NCBI RefSeq assembly: GCF_056746865.1 | Contig: NZ_JBWKMP010000005.1 | DNA: 64,000 bases | Direction: 5' to 3' (one strand) | Source: a plasmid | In this document: piece by piece, positions 9,001 to 12,000 of the stretch | Layout of the letters: each line of letters begins with the position of its first letter | How positions within the stretch are numbered: the first letter of the stretch is position 1 | Position numbers: made by a program

Positions 9001-12000
9001 TTTGTTTTCTTCTCTAGGATATGTCAAAAAGGAAATGCAGGGATCAAGAGTGCGATTTTTCAATGCTGAAATTAATCACACAATATTAATGCATCGCCCA
9101 CATCCAGAAAGTTATATTAAAGGTGGAACGCTGAAAGCTATTAAACAGAACTTGAAAGAGGCTGGGGTTTTATGAAACATTTAAAATATAAAGGATATTT
9201 AGGTACGGTTGAGCCGGATTTTGAAAATAATATCCTGTATGGAAAGCTGGCATTTATTCGTGATCTGGTGACTTATGAGGCAGAAACATTGGCTGACCTG
9301 GAACGGGAATTTAAAACATCGGTTGATTTGTATTTACAGTCCTGTGTGGAGGACGGAAAGGAGCCTGACACGCCCTTTAAAGGTGTGTTTAACGTCAGGC
9401 TTGATCCAGAGCTGCATCGTCGGGTCGCTGAAATGGCGATGGAAGAAGATTTGTCGCTGAATGCCTTTGTCAATAAGGCACTGGAAAAAGAAGTCAGTCA
9501 TCATCGCGCAGGGGCTTAATCGCCCCTTTTTGTTGCTCGCAGGCGTTGATGTTTCTTGGTATTACGGTGTAGTGTGTTGTATTTACAAACAATGCTTTAC
9601 GGTGTATTACGATGCATACTCTTTAATTGCTTGCAATCTCTTTTCACGTTCGTTGCTTTGTTCAGCTTTTTTCAATTCACTGAATATGTACTCTTCATCT
9701 TTACCCGTGAGTTTTGAACCGGAGAGCAAGCGATTAACAACTTTACGTCGAATTGCAGGGTAATCTTTGGTTTTATCGAGTATGGACAATATGCGGTCAC
9801 TACTAAGAATCTGGCCTTTCCCTGATTCCACATAATGTAGAAAAAATGCGATTGCGGACACGCCCAAAAGCACTGTAAGGACGGCTACACCATCAAGACG
9901 AAACTTTGATATAAAGGAATACGCGACCACTCCAATAATTGCTAAGCAGAGACATAAATAAATTAAGAGGTTTTTGTTGCGTTGTTTTTTTTGTGCGCGA
10001 TCATGATCATCTATGATTGCCAGTATCTTTTCTGGAGTTGCTTGAGCCATTTTTTTTCCTTATCAGGGAGACGGAGTGTTCAATCATCTGGCTTTACAAT
10101 GTAAAGCTGTGTTTGTCTTTACGGTGTAAATAATGAGATGTGCAGTTAAAAGTGTCAATCAGGTATCATATAGTAAAACACTATATGATTTTTCTGTAAT
10201 AGGCTTAAAAAATTCTCGCTTACATTGTAAAGGTCTTTGTGTCTTTACAGTGCACCACGTTGTAAATCACTGCCTTCTGTGGAGATAATCATGTTTTTTT
10301 CTGTTGGTGTCGAAACACCGAAAGATGATCAGACTGCATACGGCATCACTGTTCCGGCTTTTGATTGTTTTGGTTTTGGATGTGTTTCTGCGGCTGATTC
10401 TCAGGCAGAAATACCCGCTATGGCGCGTGAAGCGATATTGGCAATCGTGGAAGATATGGTATTAAGCGGTGCTTATTCTGTTGATGATATTCATGATGAA
10501 GGGTGTTTGACTTATTCGGATCACTCCAATTATAAGCACTGTGATAGCTGGTTTTTGGTTGATGTCGATTTAACATTAGACATGCCGTAGTCCGGCTATC
10601 GGGTCATGAGGACGCTGAAGAATATCGCAGGCATATATTTACAGTGTAAAGGTGTTTCTGTCTTTACATTGTAAGGCTTATTGAATACTACACTGTAGTG
10701 CAATGTATGTGTTTTTATGACCTATCCCCGCGTTGTGCGGGGATTTTTTTTGATAGCTAACCGCTCGCCGCAGTCTAGCGACCGAGCATAGCGAGCGAGT
10801 GACGAGGAAGCGGAAGATCCACCGTTGCCAGGAGAAAAGCAGGTACGCACTATGCATTCTGCCCTAGTGATGCTTTCACAAACCACGCGGCCTGAACTAT
10901 TACGCCATGAATCCAGCGCAAATCGGCATCACGATTTTCTTTTTTCATTTTTTCGCCACTTAAAGCCTTGCTTACGTGACTTTTTACCAGATTTTCGTGT
11001 AATTCTTTTGCTTCTTCAATTGTGAAACCACCAGGCAAATTTGGCGCTTCTGCTTCCAGTGATGCCAGAGCAATTTCATAAGCCCGGCGCTCAATATTGT
11101 CTCGCACGTCCAGGCTGCCGATTCGCTCCCTGATTTCTTTAATTAGTTTCTTGTCGTCGTCGGTAAATGTTGTCATCTCACTCTCCTTTGGCGTCAATGT
11201 TTACAGCCTGGCAAGCCTCTTTGAGCACCCAGTCAATAGCGTCTTTCCATGCCCCTGTTTCGACGGGAGGATTCGTGTGCTTTACCTGATCGTAGAAGCG
11301 TACTGCGTTTACCAGTCCTCTTGTTGGTGCTGCTATCGCAGGTGGTAAGTTGTAGAGTTCCTGAATTTCATAGTTCGGCCTGTCGTTGCAGTCTTCTTTT
11401 GTCGGCACGTATTTCCAGTCACCAACCCACGTTTTACCCTGAGAGTCCGTAACGTCTTTTTTCACGTAACGATACCTCCATGCAACAACCCCAGCTTCCA
11501 GCGATGCCAGTGCGATTTCATAAGCCCGGCGTTCAATATTGTCTCGCACGTCCAAGCTGCCGATTCGCTCTCTGATTTCTTTAATCAGTCCCTTGTCGTC
11601 GTCGGTAAAAGTTGTCATTAGTGACTCCTTTTCATATCTATGGTTTTCTTGAATCAATTTCGTCTAGTTTGAGTTTTATATTTTGCTGGTCTGATTTTGG
11701 TAATTTTCTCATGCTCTCTTCAGTTATTTTTTTCATATCAAGAAAAGCTCTTGCATAGAAGCGCAGGCTTGCCTCTTTTTCATGTTGTGCAACATACCAG
11801 GTTGCGCCAGAAAATGCCGCAGACAGGCATAATGTGCACAAGGCACAAATTGCAATGGCTGTTCTTGTACTGAAGGGTTTTACAGCCTTAGATAATGACT
11901 TCAACTTTTCTTCATATAATTTGTTGTTTTTTTCCTGGTTGCGTTTAATTCCAGATATGAGTTCAATAATATCATCTGTTAATTTTTCTTTTACCTCAAC

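Follow-up and report, generated by a model that had tools for sequence, protein, structure and literature searches.

Why should two adjacent genes of a plasmid begin with nearly the same 42 residues and then continue with unrelated sequences? The question is raised by genes A and B, the last two genes of a minus-strand operon in a stretch of 64,000 nucleotides (nt) of plasmid contig NZ_JBWKMP010000005.1 (here called the window, to whose numbering all positions refer). The plasmid is of the IncI2, MOBP, MPF_T and mcr-1 type, and the IncI2 assignment made in the first-pass annotation of this DNA agrees with its plasmid matches. Our answer, to which we assign a probability of about 0.7, is that A and B form a small array of mosaic accessory genes of phage type, like those in the ea and nin regions of lambdoid prophages, located at the distal end of a traK/traL/traM-like operon close to the origin of transfer (oriT).

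Two genes with one beginning and two endings

Genes A and B were both found as open reading frames (ORFs) on the minus strand, each with an AAAGGAG ribosome-binding site of its own (Table 1), as the first-pass annotation had described them. Residues 1 to 42, hereafter the head, are the same at 41 of 42 positions, the sole difference being a Gly in A and a Lys in B at position 10, and the first 126 coding nucleotides are identical at 115 positions (91.3%, 11 differences), in good accord with the approximately 125 bp at about 92% claimed earlier. The likeness starts at the common ribosome-binding site and ends sharply at codon 43, beyond which the two tails, A and B, are unrelated (BLASTP E = 3.4), so that the proposed absence of any relation after about residue 42, in proteins of 146 and 108 amino acids (aa), also holds. 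The limits first given for the shared segment (11040 to 11176 and 11480 to 11618) are roughly right, except that they run about 12 nt too far on the 3' side and leave out the common AAAGGAG upstream. A repeat search returned a direct repeat of 138 nt, 88% identical and with a spacing of 442 nt (11052 to 11189 versus 11494 to 11631), as the only direct repeat in the region from 10500 to 12000. Since a single nucleotide separates the stop codon of gene A from the ATG of gene B, the two genes are probably translationally coupled.

The arrangement is not peculiar to this assembly. Over a 1.1-kb query spanning both genes, the window is 100% identical to NZ_CP022452 and NZ_CP080148, and pPK8276-MCR1 is likewise identical; at least 80% of the query is covered in 163 of the 597 plasmid records with a match, and in 145 records the best-matching place is at least 99% identical. 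Furthermore, the two-gene form is present in 113 complete Escherichia coli genomes, and the exact proteins A and B each occur on at least 1000 contigs. The first-pass annotation had named a duplication introduced during assembly as the circumstance that would undo its observation. Beyond the mere presence of a repeat nothing speaks for such an artefact, and we regard it as practically excluded, because 11 of 126 nt are different between the copies and the same structure recurs in these plasmid records and complete genomes, which come from many laboratories. Thus, given that the copies differ and that the same DNA is found in independently sequenced plasmids, the pair is neither a chance resemblance nor an artefact.

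Part of the resemblance is hidden in current annotation. In NZ_CP080148, RefSeq lists gene A (11150 to 11473) as a protein of 107 aa that begins at codon 40, a CTG, and start calls of this kind conceal the shared head; the ATG at 11618 is supported by a strong ribosome-binding site and by existing homologues of 146 to 148 aa. Similarly, the upstream head-bearing ORF of CP088385 (locus L002, 3725 to 4177, ATG at 4177) has no listed coding sequence, in a gene table (PLSDB) that is known to be incomplete.

The shared head is a widespread module

The profile search with the shared head that had been proposed as a check recovered PHROG families and nothing in Pfam. Four families match the head (phrog_5117, 3323, 60 and 660), all of unknown function. 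Those numbered 5117, 3323 and 60 are described as head-confined matches, with phrog_5117 aligned to residues 1 to 49 of gene B (E = 2e-17) and, in gene A, reaching residue 104 (E = 4.4e-19); phrog_660 matches gene A over its full length (E = 1.4e-44). Both proteins fit the pattern M-T-T-F-T-D-(x)-K-E-L-I-K-E-I-K-E-R-I-G-S-L-D-V-R-D-N-I-E-R-R-A-Y-E over approximately 40 to 42 residues, which we refer to as the YfdT-type head.

A search of the 42-residue head against 1.84 billion cluster representatives, less than 50% identical to each other overall, gave 125 matching representatives, about 115 of which align at residues 1 to 40 or 42 with 82 to 100% identity, in proteins of 48 to 332 aa. This search replaced an earlier one with a 49-aa query, which had returned only short or partial proteins of no more than 86 aa. 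At the DNA level, 2878 of 5426 complete E. coli genomes (53%) contain the head, at up to five places per genome, the places being 3470 on chromosomes and 601 on plasmids. It also occurs in 166 phage records, which belong to temperate Escherichia or Shigella phages (Stx phages, SfII, SfV, mEp460 and others) with the exception of one record labeled Actinobacillus. E. coli K-12 carries one copy, that of YfdT in the cryptic prophage CPS-53, whose N terminus reads MTTFTNKELIKEIKERISSLEVRDDIERRAYEIALVSLEVEP.

Among 111 distinct heads, the charged residues K9, K13, E14, E17, R18, R25, D26 and E29 and the hydrophobic residues L11, I12, I15 and I19 are each conserved in at least 97%. Since charged as well as hydrophobic positions are held to this degree, the pattern is more suggestive of a specific surface for interaction than of a generic helix. 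Moreover, the heads of A and B differ by nine synonymous and only two nonsynonymous changes, corresponding to 0.38 synonymous (dS) and 0.021 nonsynonymous (dN) substitutions per site and to a dN/dS of 0.055. From these values it follows that the two heads have long been separate while their peptide was conserved, and the head is, as judged from the substitution pattern, under strong purifying selection at the protein level.

Many combinations of heads and tails around a near-invariant junction

In both A and B the head ends with the octapeptide IALASLEA at residues 35 to 42, and divergence begins at residue 43. We collected 297 relatives with three related queries, split them at the junction and clustered the halves. 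In this collection, whose head-by-tail counts are a sample rather than an unbiased census, the head type of the window was joined to 51 tail clusters, and, beyond the window head, 14 head clusters preceded tail A and 6 preceded tail B. The octapeptide is exactly IALASLEA in 206 of the 297 relatives, and in the alignment of tail-A proteins with differing heads the only invariant N-terminal residues are S39, L40, E41 and A42. The codons of the junction differ at synonymous sites between loci and the peptide is invariant, so the constraint acts on the peptide.

The tails have a life of their own. Homologues of tail A numbered 3225 matches, many of them prophage borne, and those of tail B or of gene B numbered 892, many of which are extended by a DUF551 domain (PF04448). 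In prophages, tails A and B are fused to other heads, including those beginning with MTTITKERLLTIKQWRETYG, MTELTKEQLIEEAKLKIAIA and MTTITRENAEIKSFITGF as well as Ead/Ea22-type coiled coils. The longer relatives are strings of modules with the recurring linkers LYAAPPVPVVP, GWNACRAAML and NSPVTPDGWIS, which often end in DUF551 or include DUF550, and tail B is also found at internal and C-terminal positions within such chains (P0294 and P0302); a Pfam scan found neither DUF551 (PF04448) nor DUF550 in A or B themselves.

Thus, the modular family with a constant head and varied tails that the first-pass annotation had envisaged does exist, as attested by the approximately 115 head-bearing representatives and by the 51 tail clusters. 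Such mosaic phage accessory genes are, in fact, a large group that has been noticed for a long time, and the A/B arrangement is typical of it. The YfdT-type head with the IALASLEA junction is a very common enterobacterial module, present in about half of the complete E. coli genomes and devoid of a Pfam entry, and identification of the partner of the head or of its oligomeric state would bear on hundreds of "hypothetical" prophage and plasmid proteins.

Recombination between heads in IncI2 plasmids

A comparison of copy number across IncI2 plasmids, also proposed at the outset, found one, two or more such genes at the site. Loci L001 and L005 have a single gene, composed of the head and tail B; the window has the head with tail A followed by the head with tail B; and loci L002, L004 and L006 have the head with tail C or D and, after one to three small genes, once more the head with tail B. 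Tails C and D either have the C-terminal half of tail A or contain another sequence in its place. These last three loci come from lineages in which other protein accessions and products are annotated for the neighboring stbB/traL and hicAB genes. The gene consisting of the head and tail B is kept in all IncI2 variants examined.

When the head nucleotides of the loci were scored as A type or B type, the head of L005 proved to be A type through codon 3 and B type from codon 10, as would be expected if two heads had recombined and tail A had been lost in the process. The heads of L001 and L009 are patchier mosaics of the two types, and in L004 one block of the upstream head has the same sequence as in the downstream head of that locus, which points to gene conversion. 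Because the heads are such patchworks, we conclude that heads of IncI2 plasmids recombine with one another. As divergent lineages already carry two heads, the one-gene locus appears to have been derived by deletion from the two-gene form; the reverse course, an insertion into a one-gene locus by two crossovers, is conceivable as well.

Locus L009 belongs to NZ_CP074877.1, a 147.7-kb toxB plasmid, where the gene made of the head and tail B (3532 to 3858 of the locus) adjoins a truncated ParB-family gene, psiB, psiA and hok/mok in the leading region of an F-type virulence plasmid, with insertion sequence remnants on its flanks.

The boundary between the two genes is itself informative. The succession of the end of tail A, CCAAAGGAGA(G/T)TGA(G/T)ATG and the start of the head has a collinear and, by eye, highly similar counterpart in a prophage on the chromosome of strain AST20, so that a tail-A gene followed by a head-bearing gene is a pre-existing phage arrangement. 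Among chromosomes, no donor of the tail-A cassette was identified, the best DNA matches being about 80% identical and beginning at the junction. Homology-driven exchange that tolerates divergence is experimentally established in lambdoid phages and prophages (PMC2327257 and PMC3945230), and phage Rad52-like recombinases are described as building mosaics by exchange of this kind (PMC3945230 and PMC2327257). Overall, the A/B array looks like the outcome of recombination that brought phage-derived cassettes together. The variability of this backbone site in IncI2, the main mcr-1 vector, would in this way be explained by a phage-derived cassette array in which the repeats drive gene gain and loss.

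Similar arrays occur in NZ_CP135715 and NZ_CP028198 (L008 and L010, about 93 kb each), which have phage-like content (humD, polymerase III theta, DUF968 and metallophosphoesterase genes) and which we take to be P1-like; they carry ead/Ea22-like, DUF551 and tail-A genes with assorted heads. It follows that the pool of modules is common to prophages, phage-plasmids and conjugative plasmids. A further match lies in phage Av-05 (NC_025830.1, 120.9 kb), presumably virulent in view of its size, where positions 73900 to 74184 encode a protein that is 65.7% identical to residues 36 to 140 of gene A's product, mostly tail A, and that lacks the head. This match fits poorly with the report of one study that virulent E. 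coli phages and temperate ones lack such exchange (PMC3945230).

Alternative explanations of the pair

The first-pass annotation had attributed the pair to a partial tandem duplication, by which the 5' part of one plasmid gene would have been doubled in situ and the copies would then have gained different 3' ends. Such an origin would account for copies that are direct, adjacent, in the same operon and only 442 nt apart, and single-gene plasmids do exist. Nevertheless, we hold it to be very unlikely, since a dS of 0.38 between the heads contrasts with a flanking backbone that is nearly identical among plasmids, since both tails have many independent prophage homologues on other heads, and since the boundary from tail A to the head is also present in the AST20 chromosomal prophage. 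Furthermore, divergent IncI2 lineages already hold two head genes with other tails, and the single-gene form has an A-type 5' end on a B-type head, as would result from a deletion between two heads. Assembly from cassettes is preferred to local duplication on these grounds.

A different proposal is that the head is kept for what its DNA or RNA does, whether as a linker for recombination, in the control of translation or as a target of small RNAs, and not for its peptide. In the literature on modular evolution it has long been suggested that lambdoid phages carry conserved sequences where genes adjoin, and the crossover points and gene-conversion patches inside the head would suit a role of this type; it is made quite improbable, however, by the prevalence of synonymous substitutions in the head (nine versus two, dN/dS of 0.055), by a junction whose third positions vary around an invariant peptide, and by the lack of any Rfam match between 9000 and 15000 and of any inverted repeat found by the repeat search between 10500 and 12000. 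The genes might also be passenger debris, brought in by recombination with prophages, of no use to the plasmid and now being lost. Gene A is indeed missing from most IncI2 relatives, with the two-gene form in only 163 of 597 records, the content of the locus is variable, truncated and frameshifted relatives are common in databases, and in NZ_CP080148 gene A is annotated by RefSeq only from codon 40. On the other side stand two intact ORFs with strong ribosome-binding sites and coupled stop and start codons, the retention of the gene made of the head and tail B in every IncI2 variant examined, and the strong purifying selection on the heads, even if the latter was perhaps exerted while they resided in phages. 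We therefore consider mere passage unlikely, though it has to be taken seriously as an account of the present state of the pair.

Predicted structure and possible function

AlphaFold2 models of both proteins, another of the checks proposed earlier, were obtained from alignments of 48 (A) and 35 (B) sequences. In both models the head consists of a helix at residues 6 to 21, a turn of five residues and a second helix at residues 27 to 41, which ends with the IALASLEA junction; tail A is modeled as a beta-rich segment followed by two helices and tail B as all helical. The amphipathicity of the head helices is moderate, their hydrophobic moments being 0.45 and 0.42. The two-helix head remains tentative, as both models are of low confidence, and it is the sole structural evidence bearing on the targeting or dimerization role that the first-pass annotation had suggested for the head.

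Under the reading of the pair as phage-type mosaic accessory genes, a head of about 42 residues, possibly folded as a helical hairpin, would lead through the near-invariant junction into a tail drawn from a large pool. By analogy with Ea22, we infer that the head oligomerizes or docks a partner, serving through its charged surface and the junction as a common module, and that the tails would supply differing activities or ligands. At the same time, the approximately 126 bp of head homology may be the recombination handle by which tails are swapped, inserted and deleted, either in a RecA-dependent manner or by the relaxed homologous recombination of phage Rad52-type proteins.

Several points weigh against this reading. 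Searches of Pfam, NCBIfam, PADLOC and PDB sequences with both proteins gave no significant match, the mean predicted local distance difference test score is as low as 58.6 for the gene A protein and 63.3 for that of gene B, and the best Foldseek match of model A in the PDB (E = 0.24) is meaningless. No member bearing the YfdT-type head has a known function. The range of combinations was counted in a sample, and the direction of change between one-gene and two-gene loci is deduced from their distribution among lineages. In addition, gene A is missing from many IncI2 plasmids, from which it follows that it is dispensable for plasmid maintenance and transfer.

It is possible to hypothesize, as a distinctly speculative and rather improbable extension, that the head is a dedicated docking module bringing many tails to one target of the host or the plasmid, and that IncI2 plasmids maintain an exchangeable set of these effectors in the oriT-adjacent operon for action early in a new host, for instance in counter-defense or host takeover. 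If this were true, the module would represent a plug-and-play effector platform common to temperate phages, phage-plasmids and conjugative plasmids.

Comparison with known mosaic genes

The archetypes of genes such as A and B are EaA of phage P22 and YfdT of E. coli K-12, with Ea22 of lambda as an analogue. YfdT (b2363, in CPS-53) has the same N-terminal head and junction, MTTFTNKELIKEIKERISSLEVRDDIERRAYEIALVSLEV, when aligned by eye, and is similarly small (101 aa) and encoded in a prophage accessory array, after yfdQ-yfdR-yfdS. It differs in being chromosomal and in having a tail unrelated to tails A and B. No defined motif has been reported in YfdT, and its sole reported phenotype is an indirect one, in that multicopy yfdQ and yfdR together with either yfdS or yfdT suppress the over-initiation of the hda-185 mutant (PMC4776307). 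We considered this redundancy between YfdS and YfdT as a clue to the function of the head and discarded it; YfdS has a different N terminus, and because it lacks the YfdT-type head the redundancy cannot be credited to the latter.

EaA of P22 (317 aa) resembles A and B in having a short helical head (MTTITKE...), a junction (IALASLDAE) and then a string of modules, but the head is of another class and the protein contains DUF550- and DUF551-like motifs, read by eye, that A and B lack. In BLASTP comparisons with P22 EaA only the junction of A and B aligns (E = 0.12 and 0.25, respectively). Thus, the database names "Phage EaA protein" for gene A in UniRef and "eaA" for the single gene in LC712329 denote a family resemblance and not orthology, since significant similarity to P22 EaA is lacking.

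Ea22 of lambda and Stx phages (Ead_Ea22, PF13935) is likewise an early gene of mosaic build, in which a common N-terminal segment and a coiled coil precede unrelated C-terminal domains, and tails A and B are also found behind Ead/Ea22-type heads (P0225 and P0422). Ea22 forms tetramers at full length and dimers when reduced to its C-terminal domain, the N-terminal part being shared and the C-terminal domains variable (PMC10834534). Different from Ea22, the head in the window is a predicted hairpin of 42 residues and not a long coiled coil. PF13935 does not match A or B; gene A has no Pfam match at all at E ≤ 10, and gene B has only a weak hit to a BrxC helical domain.

The operon and its position at oriT

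Genes A and B close a minus-strand operon that starts at the promoter-like site at 13630 to 13602 and is divergent from the mobC and relaxase genes (Table 1). A hairpin just downstream of gene B, scored as a plus-strand terminator, would end the operon.

Table 1. Features of the operon containing genes A and B (window positions)
Feature	Position	Strand	Description
Hairpin	10724–10744		G+C rich, 9-bp stem; just downstream of gene B; A-run on one side, T-run on the other; scored as plus-strand terminator
Gene B	10850–11176	-	ATG at 11176, stop at 10852–10850; 108 aa, 42-residue head and tail B
Head-coding segment of gene B	11051–11176	-	Codons 1–42; compared in sequence with gene A; also found across complete E. 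coli genomes
Gene A	11178–11618	-	ATG at 11618, stop TGA at 11180–11178; 146 aa, 42-residue head and tail A
Ribosome-binding site of gene B	11183–11189	-	AAAGGAG, within the last codons of gene A; read from sequence
Head-coding segment of gene A	11493–11618	-	Codons 1–42; 115 of 126 nt the same as in gene B
Ribosome-binding site of gene A	11625–11631	-	AAAGGAG, 6 nt ahead of the ATG; read from sequence
Gene for 243-aa protein	11638–12369	-	Same operon, upstream of gene A; weak NCBIfam matches to TraM (E = 1.1e-3) and StbC (E = 1.5e-3), below curated cut-offs
Gene for TraL-like (ParA/StbB-type) ATPase	12347–13099	-	NCBIfam PRK13886 TraL, E = 1e-53, below the NCBI curated cut-off
First gene of the operon	13117–13518	-	133 aa; position expected for traK or stbA; no family match
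Promoter-like site	13602–13630	-	TTGACA-17-CATAAT, 11/12 matches; head of the operon, within the oriT-side repeat cluster; consensus match only

The operon resembles traK-traL-traM of IncP plasmid RP4 and stbABC of IncW plasmid R388 in that it is divergent from the relaxase genes at oriT and encodes a ParA-like TraL/StbB ATPase, which in related plasmids is annotated as TraL or StbB. The likeness is weaker at the level of families, with a TraL match below the curated cut-off of NCBI and marginal TraM and StbC matches. To our knowledge, neither the RP4 nor the R388 operon ends in phage-type head/tail genes. Judging from the resemblance to the RP4 leader operon or R388 stbABC, the probable location of A and B is the leading side of oriT, which lies opposite the relaxase gene and is the first to enter the recipient; both genes are transcribed away from oriT.

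Leading-region anti-defense genes have been reported to be encoded on the T-strand (PMC11541004). We considered A and B as typical genes of that class and rejected the assignment, as homology is lacking and the orientation away from oriT would be ill fitting for T-strand encoding. In general PADLOC, NCBIfam and Pfam scans, without a search of a dedicated anti-defense library, neither gene showed homology to defense or anti-defense proteins. In prophages and P1-like phage-plasmids, the homologues of A and B are located in early accessory arrays, after the replication gene P or yfdQR or near int-xis, next to ead/Ea22-like, DUF551, ASCH and DUF968 genes.

The gene for the 243-aa protein and the end of the traL-like gene have 23 nt in common, and the protein also has a marginal match to the coiled-coil part of ZorA; other IncI2 lineages have a 199-aa protein in its place.

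Between the operon and mobC, seven copies of a motif resembling TGTGTGGG, with at most one mismatch and all on the plus strand, lie within 132 bp (13592 to 13723), in a cluster that overlaps the promoter-like site; the entire 64-kb window contains only 40 matches to the motif on both strands. The copies probably act as iterons at which a protein that recognizes oriT or an operator, possibly TraK- or StbA-like, would bind.

On the other side of the pair, a plus-strand ORF of about 100 aa at 10291 to 10590, which begins with MFFSVGVETPKDDQTAYGITVPAF, has a HicB-like PHROG match (E = 5e-7). A neighboring hicA is not seen, and the gene table of the identical plasmid NZ_CP080148 lists no coding sequence for the ORF. 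At this position a complete hicA-hicB pair is present in related IncI2 plasmids, and the ORF could be a remnant or else an antitoxin-like gene on its own.

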